DNA from: an uncultured Dehalococcoidia bacterium
GTDB lineage: Bacteria > Chloroflexota > Dehalococcoidia > Lucifugimonadales > Lucifugimonadaceae
Assembly (NCBI GenBank): GCA_913052475.1
Contig: CAJXEJ010000007.1
Span: 911-64,910, forward strand
Length of the DNA stretch: 64,000 nt
Direction: 5' to 3'
Position numbers and translations under genes: made by a program. Under the pieces are notes generated by a model. The model searched no databases. It saw only the letters and a list, made by a program, of their open reading frames with translations, and had not been told where the DNA came from. The first letter of the stretch is position 1. Every line of letters starts with the position of its first letter. Shown here one piece after another: positions 2,217-63,213 of this stretch.

Positions 2217-2680
2217 CGGTCGATTTGTAGCGTTATACCAAAACCAATACAGGCGGACATCTTGTGCCAGCCAGGGAGTGAAATCGGTATCGTCTCGAGA
2301 CCAAACCTCTCTGAGACTGCCGGAAACAATCGTCCTAATTTATTGTTCATGGTTACCTGATGTTGGGTCGAGTTATCAAAGGACATCTTCCTACTCGTAT
2401 CCGACTAAAACCGAAGAATCGTTTGTGATTGAGAGAATACATTGACTTCAGGTGAAATGGTCACAATCGTCTGGTTGCATATTTGGCAGTAGATTTGACA
2501 TCAACATGAGTGGTCAGACGTGGTGTCTAACGAACAAGTTTCAGTCTTTAGTTTGTGATTTAGAGATGCAGACAAATACCAACGAACACAAGCATCATGC
2601 GACTTAAGAAATTCAAAATGACACTGTGTGGGAGGTCGACACTTCCTTGGCAATCAAGATTTCGCGCGAACTGCGATATC

Positions 2681-3709
2681 CTAATCCACAAATTTATCGG
2701 CGTGGGCGAAAAGTTGAGGGAGGCCGCCAGAGTGGATGAAAACGATCGTTACTTCAGGGTCGATGCGACCGGCGCGTAGTTCGCCGATAAGTCCCGCCAT
2801 CGCCTTGCCGGTGTAGTTGGGATCGAGAATGAGCCCTTCTGCCTTACCAACCATTTGGATGGCTTCGATCACCCGGTCATCGAGGACGCCGTATGCGGGA
2901 CCTCGGTAGTCTTCGAGGATCTGTAGATCGTCTGATTCCAGCGAGTGTTCTAGATCGAACATCTCGACAACCTGGGAAGCACGATCTGCCGTTGCTTTTT
3001 GAAAATCTTCGACCTTGCCGGATGAGTACTGGCAGGCGGTAGTTTGCCAGTTGAGATAGCGGTTCTTGGCGTACAAGCGCAGCCCTGCAATCGATCGACC
3101 TTTGAGTCCCCAGAACCGTACCGGTCCTTCGACGCCGGCATCGGCAAACTGCTGTTCGAGTTCGAGCCCGGCTTCGAGAAATCCGATCATTCCCATTACG
3201 TCGGCGAATGGATCGTTGGGCAGGATGTAAGGTTTTCGGCCAGCTTCTTCTTCTTCGGCGAAGATCTTTTCGGCTACCTGTCGGCCATATTCCGCTGGCG
3301 TGCGATGAATGTTGGCTCCCATGAGTTTGCATAAAAGCAAATTACCGGTCATAGGGGCGTTCACCATATCGGTTGAAACGATGTGGTATTTCAGCCCGGC
3401 CTTGGCACAGCCTGCAGCGATAAAGCGTGCCTGATTCGAGTGATAGTGGTTGATGTTGATGACGGTGTTAAAACCACCTTCAAGTACGTGGGCGATCTCA
3501 AACTCGAAGTGTCGACCCTTGTTGCCACCAAACGCCAAACCCGTTGTATCGTCGCGTTTCACAAGCATTCGGTTCGGCACCGGAACACCCTCATCGATCA
3601 GCGACTGGCGAAGTCGATCGAGCGGTTCCAGTGGTGTATTTAGGTGCGAAAGTTTGAATCTTGGAAGGTTTTCCAGACCCACGCGGAACTGTTCTTGTGA
3701 GATCGTCAC
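2681..3709 (-). CDS. PLP-dependent ACC deaminase / D-cysteine desulfhydrase family enzyme
   Basis: KRDDTTGLAFGGNKGRHFEFE (PLP-lysine motif GGNKxR of this family), with a Trp-synthase-beta-like fold length of 342 aa. Confidence 0.85.
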   Translation of the reverse strand: MTISQEQFRVGLENLPRFKLSHLNTPLEPLDRLRQSLIDEGVPVPNRMLVKRDDTTGLAFGGNKGRHFEFEIAHVLEGGFNTVININHYHSNQARFIAAGCAKAGLKYHIVSTDMVNAPMTGNLLLCKLMGANIHRTPAEYGRQVAEKIFAEEEEAGRKPYILPNDPFADVMGMIGFLEAGLELEQQFADAGVEGPVRFWGLKGRSIAGLRLYAKNRYLNWQTTACQYSSGKVEDFQKATADRASQVVEMFDLEHSLESDDLQILEDYRGPAYGVLDDRVIEAIQMVGKAEGLILDPNYTGKAMAGLIGELRAGRIDPEVTIVFIHSGGLPQLFAHADKFVD

Positions 3710-3722
3710 GAAATTGCCTCGT

Positions 3723-4943
3723 TTATGAAGCCTGAGTCGGCAGCCAGCCCCAGGGTCGGGGGCCGTAATCGAGTGGTTGTGGAAAGCCGTTGCGAACTGC
3801 CATCACGGGCTTTACCGCCTGTGAACCGGTAGCAGTCGCACCTGATGCCTCTTGGAAGAGGAAGTCACCTTCAACAAGATCGAGAATCGAAATATCGGCG
3901 GCAATCCCGACGCTGAGCGAACCAATTATATCTGACATGCCGAGAATTTCGGCAGGTCTTGACGTGGTCATCCGCACAGCATCTTCGAATGAAATGCCGA
4001 GGCTCATCACCTTGCCCATGCACTCTGTCAGCGAAAAGACCGGACCCGTGTGTCGACTCATCGCGGTGATGTCGGAGCTGATCGTGTCGGGCACGAAACC
4101 CTGATCGAGAACAGCTTGTGCGGCAGCAAACGAGAAATTGCCTCCACCGACTCCAATATCGAAGTAGACACCGGCGTCACGTGCATCCTGTGCCTGCGAA
4201 ATCAGCGATCCATTAGCTAGCAGCGCACCGACCGCTCCACTAAGTGTGTGGGTAACGACGTCGCCTGCGGTCAGAATGTCGATGAGAAGCGTAGGTGTAA
4301 GATCGGCAGCAACCGGATCCTGCCCGGCGATATCGCCGACGTGAACCATCATGAATCCACCGGCTTCGTCGACGATCGCTTTTGCTGCCCTTGGCATGTC
4401 GAGTCCCAGCGCGGTAATTCCGGGAGTGACCATTCGAGCTTTCACGCCCTTGATTACATTGGGTGCGGACTGAATCGCCTGAACCGAAGAGGCGTGATCG
4501 ATATCGTCGGTGGTTTTGACCTCTGGGAGATTGGCAACCCCCATTTTGCCGATATTAAGCAATGCCATGAGCCGAGTGGTTGAGTGAGGTGCAAGGAAGT
4601 TAATTAGTGCACCGGCGTTTAGCGCCCCGACCGAACCCGCATCTAGAATGGTCGTTACTCCAGCACTCACACCGGCAACGTCTGGGCTCACCATAAACTC
4701 ATCGTTTGAAGGCTTGCGAATCCCGTCAACCGCGTGGGTATGGAGGTCGATCAGTCCGGGAGTGACGACGAATCCGCTGGCATCGATAACCCGTTTCGTA
4801 GTTGAAGTGTCGATACCTGCTACAACGGCTGAGATTTTCCCGTTGGAGACTGCGACATCGAGCTTTGCGTCGATTGAGTTAGCGGGATCGATTACTCGAC
4901 TGCCAGAAATAACGAGATCGTAGGAAGTAGATTCAGTTGGCAT
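3723..4943 (-). CDS. Amidohydrolase-superfamily metallohydrolase (deacetylase / D-aminoacylase-like)
   Basis: N-terminal beta-sandwich region followed by PGLIDLHTHA (HxH metal site). 406 aa. Lies 13 nt upstream of the ACC-deaminase-like gene, so a likely operon. Confidence 0.8.
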   Translation of the reverse strand: MPTESTSYDLVISGSRVIDPANSIDAKLDVAVSNGKISAVVAGIDTSTTKRVIDASGFVVTPGLIDLHTHAVDGIRKPSNDEFMVSPDVAGVSAGVTTILDAGSVGALNAGALINFLAPHSTTRLMALLNIGKMGVANLPEVKTTDDIDHASSVQAIQSAPNVIKGVKARMVTPGITALGLDMPRAAKAIVDEAGGFMMVHVGDIAGQDPVAADLTPTLLIDILTAGDVVTHTLSGAVGALLANGSLISQAQDARDAGVYFDIGVGGGNFSFAAAQAVLDQGFVPDTISSDITAMSRHTGPVFSLTECMGKVMSLGISFEDAVRMTTSRPAEILGMSDIIGSLSVGIAADISILDLVEGDFLFQEASGATATGSQAVKPVMAVRNGFPQPLDYGPRPWGWLPTQAS

Positions 4944-5599: not shown

Positions 5600-6769
5600 T
5601 CAATATTCTCGCAGGCTGCCATCGAGATTGATTAGTGCGGGGCGGTCGTAGGGAACGGGGGGGTAGTGCTTGAAGGCTTCTTCGTTTAGTTCGATTCCGA
5701 TGCCGGGTTTGGCAGGAACCTCGATGTAGCCGCCTACTCGTTTCAGTGGTTCTTGAACGAGTTCGGCCTTGATACCTGAGTCATCGTCGTACGGGTATTC
5801 CTGAACGGGGATGTTGTGAGTTGCGGCATCGATCTGAACACAGGCCGCAGTCAGCACGCAGCTAAGCGGGTTATGCGGAACGACTCCAACGTACGTCGAT
5901 TCGGCGATGGCAGCAATCTTCTTTACGTTGGTTATGCCGCCGGCAAGCGATAGATCAGGACGGACGAACGCTGCGCCTTGGTGATTTAAGAGTTCGCGGA
6001 ACTGGTAGATAGTGTAGAGACGCTCTCCCATCGCCAACGGAATCGGCTGCTGTTGTGCGACCCATCCCCACTGGTCCATATTTTCTGGTTCGATCGGGTC
6101 TTCGTAAAAGTAAAGATTGAACGGCTCAAGTGCCCTGCCCAGTCCGATCGCTTCGGCTGGTGTCAACCGATTTACGACGTCGATCATCAGGTCGACATCT
6201 GGTCCTGCAGCTTCCCGAACTGCAGCCACCCGCTCGACTGCGTTGTTTTGCATGCCCGTAAAGCTCATCGTTTCGAGCCCTATCCCTTCCTCAAAATTGG
6301 AGTTGCCGAAATTGCCGAACGGGTAGATGCGCAGTGCCGTGAAACCTTCTTCGACCCGCGCTGCCGCTTCTTCGGCAAGAGTTTCGGGCGTATTACCGCC
6401 AAGGTGGGTGTAGAGGCGAACTTTCTCTCGTGTCGGCCCGCCCAGTAGTTCGTAAACGGGCTTGTTGAGTGACTTGCCCTTGATATCCCACAGAGCGATA
6501 TCGATTGCACCAATCGCCGCCATCATGTCCGATCCGCCCCGGAATAGCTGGCGACGGAACATGTGCTGCCAGTGCCGCTCGGTGTGCAAGGGATCCTTGC
6601 CTACGAGATATTCGGCGCAGTACTCGACCGCTGCCCGCGGCACGAACGGTGTGCCGCCGGTTCCCGATGCCGGATGGAGCTCACCGACACCCGTTATGCC
6701 TTCGTCGGTTTCAACCTTCACGTAGTTGAATCGTGCGACGGGGAGAGTTGTTACTGCTGTGACTTTCAT
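5600..6769 (-). CDS. Enolase-superfamily (mandelate racemase/muconate lactonizing) acid-sugar dehydratase-like enzyme
   Basis: N-terminal capping-domain signature VKVETDEGITGVGE and a typical ~390 aa length. Confidence 0.85.
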   Translation of the reverse strand: MKVTAVTTLPVARFNYVKVETDEGITGVGELHPASGTGGTPFVPRAAVEYCAEYLVGKDPLHTERHWQHMFRRQLFRGGSDMMAAIGAIDIALWDIKGKSLNKPVYELLGGPTREKVRLYTHLGGNTPETLAEEAAARVEEGFTALRIYPFGNFGNSNFEEGIGLETMSFTGMQNNAVERVAAVREAAGPDVDLMIDVVNRLTPAEAIGLGRALEPFNLYFYEDPIEPENMDQWGWVAQQQPIPLAMGERLYTIYQFRELLNHQGAAFVRPDLSLAGGITNVKKIAAIAESTYVGVVPHNPLSCVLTAACVQIDAATHNIPVQEYPYDDDSGIKAELVQEPLKRVGGYIEVPAKPGIGIELNEEAFKHYPPVPYDRPALINLDGSLREY

Positions 6770-6835
6770 GATTTTCTATCCTGGCGCAGCCGCCTGACCT
6801 GCGGTGGCAACCCGGCCGTGCATCCGTACATGGGA

Positions 6836-6861
6836 TCAACCTGACGGTTGCGTCAGGATGA
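6836..6861. promoter_or_regulatory. Second copy of the palindromic candidate operator (TCAACCTGAC-ggttgc-GTCAGGATGA)
   Basis: Sits in the divergent region between the enolase gene (start 6769) and the oxidoreductase gene (start 7070). Same half-site consensus and N6 spacing as 4978..5003. Confidence 0.45.
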
Positions 6862-7069
6862 CACTTACAGACGTTACGGTTGAATACTGGTTGGCGCATT
6901 GAACACCCGCATGGGAGAAACAGCAATAGGGTGGTCGAGTTGTTGATAGCACCCGAACGCACCTTCACGGGTATAAACTCAGCGGGCATTTTTCGCAGAT
7001 GCGGTCGGTTCTTCTAGTCCTGCTGCGTTTTCTCTCTATTCGTTAACTGGATACAAGGAACAAACTCTC

Positions 7070-8242
7070 ATGGCAGGACCTCTGCGCGTCGGATTGATCG
7101 GCGTCGGCCAACGTGGACTTCAGCACGTTAATGCGCTGACAAACATGCAGTCGGACGAGATCGTCCAGATAACTGCGCTAGCAGATCCCTACCCTGAGAA
7201 CCTCAAAGAGTCGAAGATTTCGAGCCATGTCGACGGCTACTCACCCGCAGGTATTCAGATGTTCGACAGTGCCGACGGAATGATCGAGTCAGGCCTCGTC
7301 GACGCCATCTGGTTCGTCATACCACCGAACCAGCACAAAGGTGAGATTGAACGAGCCGCAAAGCGCGAAATCGCCATCTTTGCCGAGAAACCACAATCGC
7401 TGTTCCTCGACGACATCATTTCTCAGGACGCTGCGATCACCAAGGCTGGTGTGCCGAGCACGGTCGGGTTTCAGATGCGACACGATCGCGGCTACACCGA
7501 TATCCACAACTACCTCAGCGACAAGTGGGTTGCTGCCATGACGATGATCGCCGAAGGTGCAGTCGAAGGTCACGGCGTAAAACACACCCACACTGAAGAG
7601 CAGGGTGGCCCCGCCAACCGTGTTTGGACAGCTAACCGGGCATGGTCGGGTACTTCAATTGTCGAAGCCGGAATCCACCAGACCGACATCATGCGCTACT
7701 GGTCGGGCGATGACGTTGACTGGGTGCGGGCGACCTACACTGACCGTCCTGCTGAGCTGCACGACACCGAGGGTGACAACCCGATTGCCTACACCGTCAC
7801 CTACGGGATGAAGAAGGGCGGCGTCGCCAACTTGATTTTCACGAAACCGGCACGGTCGTACTACGGTGGTCGATTCGACTGCATCATTCACACGCACGGC
7901 ACGATCAAGCTGGAAGACGACTTTGTTGATTACACATTTGATGGCGACTGGCCACCGGCGAACAATCCGACCATCGATCAGGTCAGAAAGGTCATTTCAG
8001 CAGGTCCGCACAATACAGCGATGGGCGGCGAGAGCACGCTGGCAATCGGCAAGTCGTTTGCGACTTCGATTGTTGAATGCAAGCCGGAGAATCGCTTGAA
8101 TTCGTTCAACTCGTCGATCAACTCGTTGGCTGCTGTACTTGCTGCGAATATTTCTAACGACCTCGGTGGCGAGAAGATCGTTATCGATGAGTTCATCAAC
8201 GACGACAAGTACGCTCAGTATCGGGTAAACCCGAACAGGTAG
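7070..8242 (+). CDS. Gfo/Idh/MocA-family NAD(P)-dependent oxidoreductase
   Basis: Rossmann N-terminus LRVGLIGVGQRGLQH. 390 aa. Confidence 0.8.
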   Translation: MAGPLRVGLIGVGQRGLQHVNALTNMQSDEIVQITALADPYPENLKESKISSHVDGYSPAGIQMFDSADGMIESGLVDAIWFVIPPNQHKGEIERAAKREIAIFAEKPQSLFLDDIISQDAAITKAGVPSTVGFQMRHDRGYTDIHNYLSDKWVAAMTMIAEGAVEGHGVKHTHTEEQGGPANRVWTANRAWSGTSIVEAGIHQTDIMRYWSGDDVDWVRATYTDRPAELHDTEGDNPIAYTVTYGMKKGGVANLIFTKPARSYYGGRFDCIIHTHGTIKLEDDFVDYTFDGDWPPANNPTIDQVRKVISAGPHNTAMGGESTLAIGKSFATSIVECKPENRLNSFNSSINSLAAVLAANISNDLGGEKIVIDEFINDDKYAQYRVNPNR

Positions 8243-60449: not shown

Positions 60450-61093
60450 ATGGGAAGTGAACTATTAAATGATCGGATTCGTGCTGGAGAGGAATACAAC
60501 GAGGTCCGCAATGAGATGGATAGCACGGCCGAACAAGTGCAGGAGATTATCCGCACGCAGTCGCCGGATATTATCTACGTCGATAGCCAGCACGGCCGCA
60601 CACCGAATGGGACATCGTTCGAATCTGCAAATCCGCCGAGGAGCTGGGGGTGGGTGTGATTCTGCGAATCAAGCACACTCGTTACGCTCATTTAGCTGGC
60701 AATTATCTTGATCTGGGATTGCTTGGAATCAAGGTCCCTGAGGTCGAGGATCCAGAGGTTGTTCAGGAGGCAATAAATGCCTTTTATTATCCACCGATCG
60801 GTCGACGAAGCTGGGGCGGCGAAGTCGGATTCGGAAAGTCGGATATTGAAGATCGTGTCGAGTATTCCAGATGGTGGAATAAGACCGGAATTCTGGCAAT
60901 TAAGATCGAGTCGATAAAGGCCGTATTGAACATCCGAGATATCATTGATCCGTTGCTTACGTTTATGGATGACGGGGCAAACGATCTGAATTTTAGTCTT
61001 GAAACTACCCCTCATCTGGAATTGAAGACATACGAAGACTGCAGAGCGTTCGTGGACAAAGAATTCGCCGATGTAGATATTCGCGTGAAATAG
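60450..61093 (+). pseudogene. HpcH/HpaI-family aldolase interrupted by a single frameshift
   Basis: Frame 1 reads ...PDIIYVDSQHG. Continuation is only in the next frame: (P)HTEWDIVRICKSAEELGVGVILRIKHTRYAHLAGNYLDLGLLGIKVPEVEDPEVVQEAINAFYYPPIGRRSWGG.... The switch is at about 60594-60600 (GGCCGCACACC). Confidence 0.6.
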
Positions 61094-61175: not shown

Positions 61176-61303
61176 TATTAAAGCAAACGGTTGATGGGCC
61201 GATCGATCGTGCGGTCGTATGAGGTACTGGATCAACTATTTTCATCGGGACAGACAAGGTGCTTGACAGTTGAACGAATTTGGTCAGACAGGAAGATGGT
61301 TGA

Positions 61304-61807
61304 ATGGCAGAACAAGAAGAAGCAAACAATCCGATCGCATACCGTTCCCACGTTAGAATAGAGCGGGTGAAGGGGCCGATTCGTCGGGCGTTTGTGCCTG
61401 CGCATGATGGGCCGGTGATGCTGGGAGTTCACTCCGAGGTTGCCGAGCACTACGGAGTCGACAACAACGTGATCGATCCGTACACGACCACTCTTGATTA
61501 CATTATTGCCGCGGCCGCTGGCTGAATGATCGGAACATTTGGCGGTGCCCTTGAGGCCCGAGGGGTTCCGGCCGGAGACGGTTTTCTTATCTCAGAATCA
61601 GAAGGTCAGCTTGAGAAAGAAAACAACATTCTTGTCATCAAGCGCGTTCACATCAAGTACATCCTGAACGTTGACAAAGCTCTATACGCCGAAAAAGAAT
61701 CGGCCATCCAGCGAGCGTTCGATCTGCACCACGATTCATGCCCCGTCTACCGAAGCATCCACGCCAGCATCGACATCACAAAAGAGCTTGAGGTAGTCGA
61801 GACGTAG
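61304..61807 (+). CDS. OsmC/Ohr-family peroxiredoxin-like protein with in-frame TGA (61523-61525) at the conserved Cys position. Either a candidate selenoprotein or a nonsense allele.
   Basis: ORFs 61304..61525 and 61526..61807 are in the same frame. The joined product reads ...TTLDYIIAAAAG[TGA]MIGTFGGALEARGV...HHDSCPVYRS. The E. coli OsmC landmarks are ..LLAAAHAGCFSMAL.. and ..CPYS... Confidence 0.6.
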
Positions 61808-61819
61808 CGTACAGTGACT

Positions 61820-61839
61820 CCCTCCCTATCAAGGGAGGG
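61820..61839. other. Hairpin between convergent genes (CCCTCCC-tatcaa-GGGAGGG)
   Basis: 7-bp G/C-rich stem with no flanking T-run on either strand. Possible bidirectional terminator or repeat fragment. Confidence 0.3.
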
Positions 61840-61914
61840 CCGACAGTAGTCAGTGGAAGCTCGTCATATTTCAGCGGGAATTCCCAAAACTTGCAGAAAA
61901 CGTTCCAATGCACC

Positions 61915-63213
61915 TCACGGCTTGACCATTGAACCGTCGGCTCGGCGGACAGTGTCCCAGGCTCCCCCAAATTCACGCTCTTTGAACGGGAATTTGGCCG
62001 CCAAGTCTTCATCGATATCTATACCGAGACCCGGCTCGCCGTTCGACCACATCATGCCGTCTTTCAGCGTTGGCGTACCCGGGAACATCTCGCGTGTTCG
62101 TTCCGAAGGAATGTTGGCTTCTTGGATACCAAAATTATAGGTGTTCAGGTTCAGCATCATGTTCGCAGCGTGACCCACAGGCGAAGTATCACCAGGACCG
62201 TGCCAGGCAGTTCGAACATTATAAAGTTCACCCATTGCTGCGATCTTACGGGCAGGCGTGATGCCACCGATCTGAGACATGTGAATTCGGATGAAGTCCA
62301 TCAATCGATTCTCAATCATTGGAATTACTTCGTGGGGGCTGTTGTGCAGCTCGCCCATGGCGATTGGAGTAGCGCACTGCTCGCGAACCATTTTGAAGTA
62401 GGCCTGATCCTCTGGGCTGAACAAATCTTCGAGGAAGAACAACTGGTACTTCTCGACCTCTTTGGCGAACCAAACACCGAGAATCGGTGGAATGCGTTCG
62501 TGAACGTCGTGAAGAATTTCCAATCCATATCCGAAGCGATTTCGAATGTACTCGAATAGTCCTAATGCTGATCGCATGTACGGCTTGGGTTCATAGACGC
62601 CACCCGGGTGCGCGTAGAGTTTGTCTTTGGCGTATTCACGCAGCCAATCTGTGTTGGCAATAGGCCCTTCGAGCGTGTTCTGGTTACTTGCCGTGCCGGT
62701 GCCGGTCGCTGCGCCTCTATTGCCGTAGGTTGCGTAGCCGGGAGTCGACATCTGTACTCGGATGTGGTGGAAGCCTTGCTCCACGAACTCCTGCACCTTG
62801 TCGCCGACTTCTTCGTGCGATTCGCCCGAGGTGTGAACGTAAACAGGAGCTGCTACACGCGCTCGACCGCCAAGCAAATCGTAAACCGGCATGCCGGCCA
62901 TCTTGCCCTTGATGTCCCAGAGTGCCTGGTCGACGCCAGATAGTGCGTTGTTGAGCACGGGACCGTTGCGCCAGTAGGACGAAACGTACGATGACTGCCA
63001 GATGTCCTCGATATCGGCAACGTTACGCCCGATCAGGAAGGGTTTCAGGTAGTCGTCAACGGCCGCTGCGACGGCGGTGGGTCTCTGGGTAAAGGTTGCG
63101 CAGCCGACGCCGTGAAGGCCGGGTTCTGAAGTTTCGATCTTGACGATTACAAGCCGGATTTGATCCGGCTCGGTGAGAATTGTCTTGATATCTCGAATCG
63201 TTACATTGCTCAT
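61915..63213 (-). CDS. Enolase-superfamily ManD/RspA-like D-mannonate dehydratase subgroup
   Basis: IRDIKTILTEPDQIRLVIVKIETSEPGLHGVGCATFTQRP...ALWDIKGK. 432 aa. Confidence 0.85.
   Translation of the reverse strand: MSNVTIRDIKTILTEPDQIRLVIVKIETSEPGLHGVGCATFTQRPTAVAAAVDDYLKPFLIGRNVADIEDIWQSSYVSSYWRNGPVLNNALSGVDQALWDIKGKMAGMPVYDLLGGRARVAAPVYVHTSGESHEEVGDKVQEFVEQGFHHIRVQMSTPGYATYGNRGAATGTGTASNQNTLEGPIANTDWLREYAKDKLYAHPGGVYEPKPYMRSALGLFEYIRNRFGYGLEILHDVHERIPPILGVWFAKEVEKYQLFFLEDLFSPEDQAYFKMVREQCATPIAMGELHNSPHEVIPMIENRLMDFIRIHMSQIGGITPARKIAAMGELYNVRTAWHGPGDTSPVGHAANMMLNLNTYNFGIQEANIPSERTREMFPGTPTLKDGMMWSNGEPGLGIDIDEDLAAKFPFKEREFGGAWDTVRRADGSMVKP

Follow-up and report, generated by a model that had tools for sequence, protein, structure and literature searches.

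An 'OsmC-like' selenoprotein with the motif UxxT, where U stands for selenocysteine (Sec), was described from the Sargasso Sea in three sequences of COG1765 (Zhang, Fomenko & Gladyshev 2005, PMC1088965), and five sequences were counted in the Global Ocean Sampling data (Zhang & Gladyshev 2008, PMC2398784). Reviews give this COG1765/YhfA, UxxT protein as the sole selenoprotein of the OsmC type (PMC9312934; PMC13188914). Here we analyse a gene for a probable second such protein, at positions 61304-61807 of a 64,000-nucleotide (nt) stretch of contig CAJXEJ010000007.1 from an uncultured Dehalococcoidia bacterium, which as a whole we call the window. An in-frame UGA at 61523-61525 interrupts the gene. 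Judging from comparative sequence evidence, we consider it about 90% probable that 61304-61807 is one intact selenoprotein gene and that this UGA is a true Sec codon. The family-level pattern behind this reading, in which all 83 family sequences have TGA at the same column and synonymous sites are frozen just downstream of it, is far beyond chance.

The published protein and the one encoded here are alike in several respects. Both are marine members of PF02566 with Sec replacing the first conserved Cys and a Sec insertion sequence (SECIS), putative in our case, directly after the UGA, and hhalign sets their Sec columns in register (LAYIVAGIGF-U-LL against LDYIIAAAAG-U-MI). Nevertheless, the published sequence (AACY01145085) has no significant similarity to ours (BLASTP E = 0.01-0.05, over short segments; hhalign probability 1.4%). 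It is 137 amino acids (aa) long, reads …YIVAGIGF-U-LLTQLKRY… with the motif U-L-L-T and has its second Cys in GCFAENL, whereas the window family is 157-167 aa long and has its second Cys in C-P-V. Membership in the published UxxT OsmC-like family was rejected on these grounds, significant similarity and the UxxT motif both being missing. A first-pass annotation of the window had named Sec-for-Cys replacement in thiol peroxidase families as a precedent; such an OsmC-like case does exist (PMC1088965), but it belongs to a different OsmC subfamily. By sequence, the window family appears as a separate OsmC branch, which would place Sec at the catalytic column used by the published protein but has a motif and a putative SECIS of its own. 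We found no published account of this branch, or of selenium use in SAR202/Lucifugimonas, in a search that left the BSepDB entries themselves outside.

Two open reading frames (ORFs), 61304-61525 (73 aa) and 61526-61807 (93 aa), occupy a single reading frame with nothing but the TGA between them, just as the first-pass annotation had read them. Across the divide the sequence runs ...DYIIAAAAG-[TGA]-MIGTFGGALEARG..., and the corresponding peptide of Candidatus (Ca.) Lucifugimonas marina JH545 is ...DYIVTAAAG-U-MTGTFGGALEAR. The read-through protein matches the Pfam OsmC model (PF02566) over residues 61-159 with 38.9 bits, above the gathering threshold of 27.5, which bears out its description as an OsmC/Ohr-like protein of normal length; none of the NCBIfam subfamily models was reached (21 bits against a cut-off of 166). 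The second conserved Cys, said to be intact in SCPVYRS, is indeed encoded by an undisturbed TGC (...DSCPVYRS...; coordinates of this and other features are collected in Table 1). Elsewhere in the window TGA is an ordinary stop that terminates 8 of 34 long ORFs, both neighbours of the gene included. The window therefore uses the standard genetic code, and a reassigned code was ruled out. The search for other TGA-interrupted genes in the window returned none: among 124 mechanical candidates, only the one at 61523 has protein-like sequence on both sides.

To place this TGA in its family, we scanned one genome per GTDB species with the pattern HSE[IV]AEHY and a W/C back-translation, neither of which is able to favour TGA. 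A relative was present in 336 genomes, of which the best 80 were used; these species-representative genomes, two metagenome contigs (L001 and L002) and the window make up the family set (n = 83). The first-pass annotation had asked whether orthologues carry Cys or TGA at this column, and all 82 other loci, at 53-86% protein identity, have TGA. The best 80 of the 336 genomes cover at least seven phylum-level lineages and include SAR202/Dehalococcoidia, Anaerolineae, Ardenticatenales, Desulfobacterales, Latescibacterota, Poribacteria, NC10 and Actinomycetota. The cultured Ca. Lucifugimonas marina JH545 (L015; NZ_CP046146.1) carries the gene with TGA at 75% identity to the window, and the TGA is kept in a scaffold from another sample (L088) that is 99.8% identical over 12.5 kb. 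The gene is also present in the complete genomes OY759581.1 and OZ244820.1. Since the same TGA stands in 83 independent sequences, an assembly error is ruled out. Besides the TGA, the family shares a conserved N-terminal region (VYxSxVRIERVKGPxRRAYLP...HSEVAEHYGV), the second Cys in C-P-V and the motif U-[LM]-T-G-T-F-G-G-A-L-E-A-R. The first five positions of this motif, U-[LM]-T-G-T, are found in all sequences but one; the window itself reads U-M-I-G-T.

Homologues in protein databases are of two types. Dozens begin just after the TGA and are exactly 93 aa long, with 63-99% identity and from Dehalococcoidia/Chloroflexi metagenome-assembled genomes (MAGs); others are 'full-length' relatives of ~157 aa with 40-59% identity to the window protein. 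Most of the ~157-aa relatives show Trp at the TGA column. The DNA, checked in L001 and L002, reads TGA there, the gene caller having evidently switched to TGA = Trp (genetic code 4) on short contigs. Two further database proteins have Leu (P0062) and Arg (P0003) at the Sec column (alignment A1), and their codons could be one step from TGA (TTA, CGA, AGA).

Purifying selection acts on both halves of the gene. The ratio of non-synonymous to synonymous substitution rates (dN/dS) between the window and its relatives is 0.01-0.04 upstream of the TGA and 0.08-0.26 downstream, with synonymous sites near saturation. Such values on both sides of the TGA rule out a recent nonsense mutation. In addition, neither the window nor the 82 other sequences scanned have a further stop or frameshift within the gene.

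The interrupted position is a catalytic one in described relatives. In E. coli OsmC, Cys59 is the peroxidatic and Cys125 the resolving residue. A search of the PDB with the window sequence alone gave no matches and a family profile was required, which gave weak but consistent alignments to PDB sequences. These set the Sec column against the Cys of Thermus thermophilus OsmC 1ukk (AHAG-C-FSMAL) and of E. coli YhfA 1ml8 (AAGG-C-SAID), and the invariant C-P-V against the second Cys (CPVSRAL in 1ukk, CPYSKA in OhrB 2bjo). A small sister clade of the family has Cys itself at the Sec column (P0075, P0083, P0084, P0103 and P0112), with the codon confirmed as TGC in L086 and L087. Both results agree with the proposal that the UGA occupies the place of the first conserved Cys of OsmC.

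The Cys-form homologue P0084 was modelled with AlphaFold (predicted local distance difference test, pLDDT, 84.9; predicted template modelling score, pTM, 0.82). In Foldseek the model returned 38 PDB matches at E <= 0.001, all of OsmC/Ohr type and at 10-22% identity, the best being 1ukk with E = 3e-6. The modelled Sec/Cys residue lies early in a long central helix, and the second Cys lies where two C-terminal helices join. By profile, predicted fold and two redox positions, the protein is thus assigned to the OsmC/Ohr superfamily (PF02566). It resembles OsmC (E. coli 1qwi/1nye and T. thermophilus 1ukk) and YhfA (1ml8) in fold (Foldseek E = 3e-6 to 7e-4) and in both redox positions, but identity to them is confined to the low range given above and the window family has Sec where they have Cys. 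Ohr proteins (2bjo, 6eb4 and 1zb9) share the fold, the CP motif at the second Cys and a similar stretch (AACFGGALE in OhrB, TGTFGGALE in the window family). Their first Cys, however, is shifted from the Sec column by four residues towards the C terminus and falls on the second Thr of U-x-T-G-T, so the predicted catalytic placement in the window family is OsmC/YhfA-like and not Ohr-like.

Immediately downstream of the UGA, the family mRNAs can form an extended hairpin at positions 8-49, counted from the U of the UGA. Its outer stem is UCGGA(AC)/(GU)UCCGG, and a GC-rich inner stem falls on the Gly-Gly-Ala-Leu-Glu-Ala-Arg codons, which form the hairpin core in every family member. The core is built in two registers. 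In clade A (SAR202/Dehalococcoidia, ATG after the TGA, 46 distinct sequences) it is GCC-CUUGA-GGC, extended by GCG(G)/(C)CGC and UUU/GGA-type pairs, and the outer stem pairs positions 8-12 with 45-49 (CCGGA/UCCGG). Clade B comprises 34 sequences in which CTG, CTC or CTA follows the TGA; its core is GCGCGCU-GGA-AGCGCGC, with the outer stem as in clade A. At position 31 (61553), 27-29 nt past the UGA, the G that opens the invariant Glu codon remains unpaired in both registers as part of the apical loop. An unpaired loop G is required in bacterial SECIS elements (bSECISearch model, E. coli fdhF). The family hairpin is like the canonical bacterial SECIS of the E. coli fdhF type (bSECISearch, cited in PMC13326102) in starting a few nt after the UGA, lying inside the coding sequence and presenting a loop G; unlike that element, it takes two clade-specific registers on one peptide.

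Several measures bear on this hairpin region. Compared with synonymous recodings, hairpin stability across loci has a mean z of -1.3, and p <= 0.05 is reached in 33% (5% expected). Synonymous codon entropy at conserved codons +6 to +15 is 0.96 bits versus 1.77 bits for the rest of the gene (Mann-Whitney p = 3.6e-5), with restricted codon use at Ala+8 (GCC or GCG only) and Leu+9 (CTT or CTG only). Cells in register are paired in 88.7-90% of cases versus 32-61% with slid partners, a control biased towards any structure that, like this one, was drawn from the data being tested. The same region of the Cys-form homologue has no hairpin (-11.9 versus -13.3 kcal/mol in shuffles, p = 0.58), and the peptide there changes to LTGTFAGILKTRK. 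A downstream hairpin conserved among orthologues, a check named in the first-pass annotation, is thus found in the Sec forms and missing from the Cys form.

The decoding machinery was traced at a few loci. Searches of the loci with E. coli SelA, SelB and SelD (tblastn) gave two matches. One, in the Chloroflexota MAG L076, is a SelA encoded 1.7 kb upstream of the family gene, with 44% identity to E. coli SelA over 443 aa (E = 9e-94). The other, a SelB-like match in L058, was rejected as actually IF-2 adjoining NusA. A search with the L076 SelA found P0166, a SelA encoded on a 6,110,456-bp chromosome that also holds the L057/L085 copy of the family gene; the best 120 matches of that search are all Anaerolineae-type, and among them only the L057 chromosome was cross-matched to a family gene. 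A class-I pyridine nucleotide-disulfide oxidoreductase encoded close downstream of the Sec gene in L076 is a candidate reductant partner of the Sec protein. Selenoproteins have been documented in these lineages: two Dehalococcoidia MAGs are among the ten most selenoprotein-rich bacteria in BSepDB, with 49 and 46 selenoproteins (PMC13326102), and an earlier survey listed selenoproteins in Chloroflexi (PMC1794560).

A number of results weigh against the selenoprotein reading. Neither the 64-kb window nor the flanks of SAR202-type loci contain selA, selB, selD or tRNA-Sec, and a search for tRNA-Sec in the window and 60 locus flanks found none. Covariation in clade A does not exceed that in shuffles. 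Clade B shows a modest signal, with 10 double-change cells where shuffles have 5.2 +/- 1.9, a count that 8 of 500 shuffles attain. Within a clade the core pairs do not vary and hence carry no information on covariation. An Rfam search of the hairpin matched no family, a result to be expected, as Rfam is not known to have a general bacterial SECIS model. The window's own hairpin, taken alone, is within chance (z = -0.64 against dinucleotide shuffles; p = 0.26 against synonymous recodings), and its folding energy was not counted in favour of the reading. It is also the most degenerate in clade A, with several near-isoenergetic registers, and differs from that of the closest relative, L003, at U8, A39 and G43 (61530, 61561 and 61565). 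Codon by codon, U8 replaces ACC (Thr) with ATC (Ile), A39 replaces CGC with CGA, and G43 replaces ATT with GTT; within clade A, U8 and A39 occur only in the window and L088. The three changes weaken the family-type fold, which has -9.7 to -12.8 kcal/mol in the window against -23.6 kcal/mol in L003, and alternative registers in the window reach -19.2 kcal/mol.

The first-pass annotation had drawn a particular form of this hairpin. Its elements exist, with GGAAC (61532-36) pairing with GTTCC (61565-69), CCCTTG (61548-53) with CGAGGG (61559-64) and AGGCC as the loop, at -12.5 kcal/mol. Its inner stem, however, belongs to the alternative registers of the window and is not a conserved pairing: it needs the CGA codon that clade A has only in the window and L088, and it reaches -7.1 kcal/mol in L003 against -23.6 kcal/mol for the family fold. 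In aggregate, the family as a whole has the features of a SECIS, and the window's own allele has them weakly. Sec insertion efficiency in the window strain may differ from that in its relatives.

Three other accounts of the interrupted frame were weighed. The UGA might be read through by a route independent of Sec, for instance by a near-cognate tRNA for Trp or Cys, to give a Cys or Trp product. The weak covariation support for a SECIS and a Sec machinery not demonstrated in the window's genome speak for this account, which we nonetheless judge very unlikely, for the position is that of the catalytic Cys in homologues. The pairing of Cys and UGA among homologues, a signature used to identify selenoproteins (PMC1088965, PMC13326102), is present here. 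A hairpin with an unpaired loop G lies where bacterial SECIS elements have it, selA adjoins the gene in L076 and is co-resident in L057/L085, and Dehalococcoidia are documented as selenoprotein-rich. Moreover, a plain Cys would be obtained more simply from a TGY codon, as in the Cys clade.

Less probable still is a split gene, in which the UGA is a real stop, the 93-aa part reinitiates at the adjacent AUG and the two pieces assemble into an OsmC-like fold. This account draws on the codon after the TGA, which is ATG in 46 of 46 distinct clade A sequences, on the 93-aa ORF called by gene callers, and on purifying selection on both halves, which fits two translated pieces as well. It fares poorly in clade B, whose 34 sequences continue with CTG, CTC or CTA, the last two of which are not start codons. 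It would also lose the residue at the catalytic position, where the sister clade and the OsmC and YhfA structures have Cys, and cut the modelled long central helix mid-way. Reinitiation has no need of a hairpin or of synonymous sites frozen to 15 codons downstream, and in L076 selA lies close to the gene. We give the least credence to a pseudogene made by a TGY-to-TGA nonsense mutation in this lineage, which the comparative data effectively refute. The disrupted HpcH/HpaI aldolase gene next door and the degenerate state of the window's hairpin, the most extreme of its clade, speak for it. Against it, the TGA recurs in 83 of 83 sequences, across phyla and at protein identities as low as 53%; purifying selection holds for the downstream half despite near-saturated synonymous sites; and the gene is otherwise free of stops and frameshifts in the window and the 82 others. 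The earlier suggestion that several broken genes in the window bear on the TGA did not hold up: the aldolase break is a frameshift and unrelated, and there is no further TGA-interrupted gene.

Under the selenoprotein reading, we infer selenium insertion, SelB binding and peroxidase chemistry by analogy with described systems. If the established bacterial mechanism applies, the mRNA at ~61530-61571 would fold into the SECIS hairpin, which sits on the codons of the invariant peptide TGTFGGALEAR, as the ribosome nears the UGA; SelB carrying Sec-tRNA(Sec) would bind the hairpin and insert Sec in place of termination. Homology to the catalytic pair of OsmC suggests that Sec74 in the central helix and Cys146 in the CPV motif would act as a selenol/thiol redox pair. 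Hydroperoxide would be reduced via a selenenic acid and then a selenenyl-sulfide, and an external thiol would then return the pair to its reduced state. A more specific proposal, which we put forward tentatively and at less than even odds, is that these proteins form an uncatalogued family distinct from the YhfA type, in which Sec is near-obligatory and the SECIS, with its two registers, is built into the codons of the active-site helix. RNA structure and the peptide TGTFGGALEAR would then constrain each other.

The surroundings of the gene vary. No conserved partner gene was found family-wide, and gene order is kept only within one Dehalococcoidia sub-clade. In that sub-clade (L019-L049, L063, L070 and L072), inspection by eye shows prephenate dehydratase-like, TrkA-like and universal-stress-like genes upstream, and a glyoxalase-fold gene and a 712-aa iron-sulfur (CCG-type) oxidoreductase gene downstream. 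In three of three contigs (L086 6001-7135, L087 679-1813 and the P0083 contig), the gene immediately downstream of the Cys form encodes 190-194 aa and has a faint CMD/AhpD-like match; no such neighbour was seen beside Sec forms. In the window, the HpcH/HpaI aldolase gene (60450-61093, + strand) consists of a 69-aa and a 147-aa ORF in different frames, split at a G-run (GCTGGGGGTGGGTG, ~60640-60656). The split is identical in L088, which is 99.8% identical, and represents either a real frameshift of the lineage or a shared homopolymer error. Between the OsmC-like gene and the convergent dehydratase gene lies a perfect 8-bp hairpin, CCCTCCCT-ATCA-AGGGAGGG (61821-61840), which may be a bidirectional terminator; having no T-tract, it was missed by the terminator scan.

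Table 1. Positions of the predicted Sec gene, its elements and associated genes, in window coordinates unless the contig L076 is named.
Feature	Position	Strand	Basis
Predicted OsmC-fold selenoprotein coding sequence, 167 codons including Sec74	61304..61807	+	translation, Pfam, orthologues, dN/dS
Putative Shine-Dalgarno-like AGGAAG, 8 nt 5' of the ATG at 61304	61290..61295	+	read from sequence
In-frame UGA, predicted to be read as Sec, residue 74, first catalytic Cys position of OsmC	61523..61525	+	conservation, Cys-form TGC, structure-sequence alignment
SECIS-like extended hairpin within the coding sequence	61530..61571	+	family recurrence, register pairing, frozen synonymous sites, missing from Cys form
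Apical loop CUUGA, family-type fold	61550..61554	+	alignments A4 and A5, consensus structures
TGC for Cys146, second (resolving) Cys, invariant C-P-V motif	61739..61741	+	invariant in family alignments; aligns with 1ukk CPVSRAL and 2bjo CPYSKA
Stop TAG of the OsmC-like gene	61805-61807	+	
Enolase-superfamily dehydratase gene	61915-63213	-	
selA (L076)	2485-4071		
OsmC-like Sec gene (L076)	5761-6210		
Class-I pyridine nucleotide-disulfide oxidoreductase gene (flavoprotein), ~240 nt downstream of the Sec gene (L076)	6453-7823		

NCBI and JGI records list the gene as a fragment of 93 aa under the names 'hypothetical' or 'OsmC family' (P0002, P0016, P0037, P0079 and others), and none of the source names of database homologues carries a selenoprotein label. 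Through this systematic mis-calling, hundreds of genomes would hide an intact antioxidant enzyme. To a selenoprotein specialist the case itself would be unsurprising, since a thiol peroxidase fold would have exchanged Cys for Sec in the usual way, with an ordinary bacterial SECIS. Sec would thereby occupy this catalytic position in two independent branches of the OsmC superfamily, a further instance of recurrent Cys-to-Sec exchange among thiol peroxidases. A SECIS placed in an active-site helix would freeze both the peptide and its synonymous sites, leaving covariation tests near blind while synonymous-entropy tests work. The reading also places a Sec-dependent enzyme in SAR202/Dehalococcoidia, which are among the most abundant deep-ocean bacteria and include a cultured carrier of the gene (L015). 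If the more specific proposal of an uncatalogued family with near-obligatory Sec is true, part of the peroxide defence of SAR202 would depend on selenium, with consequences for trace-element ecology and for the culturing of these bacteria.

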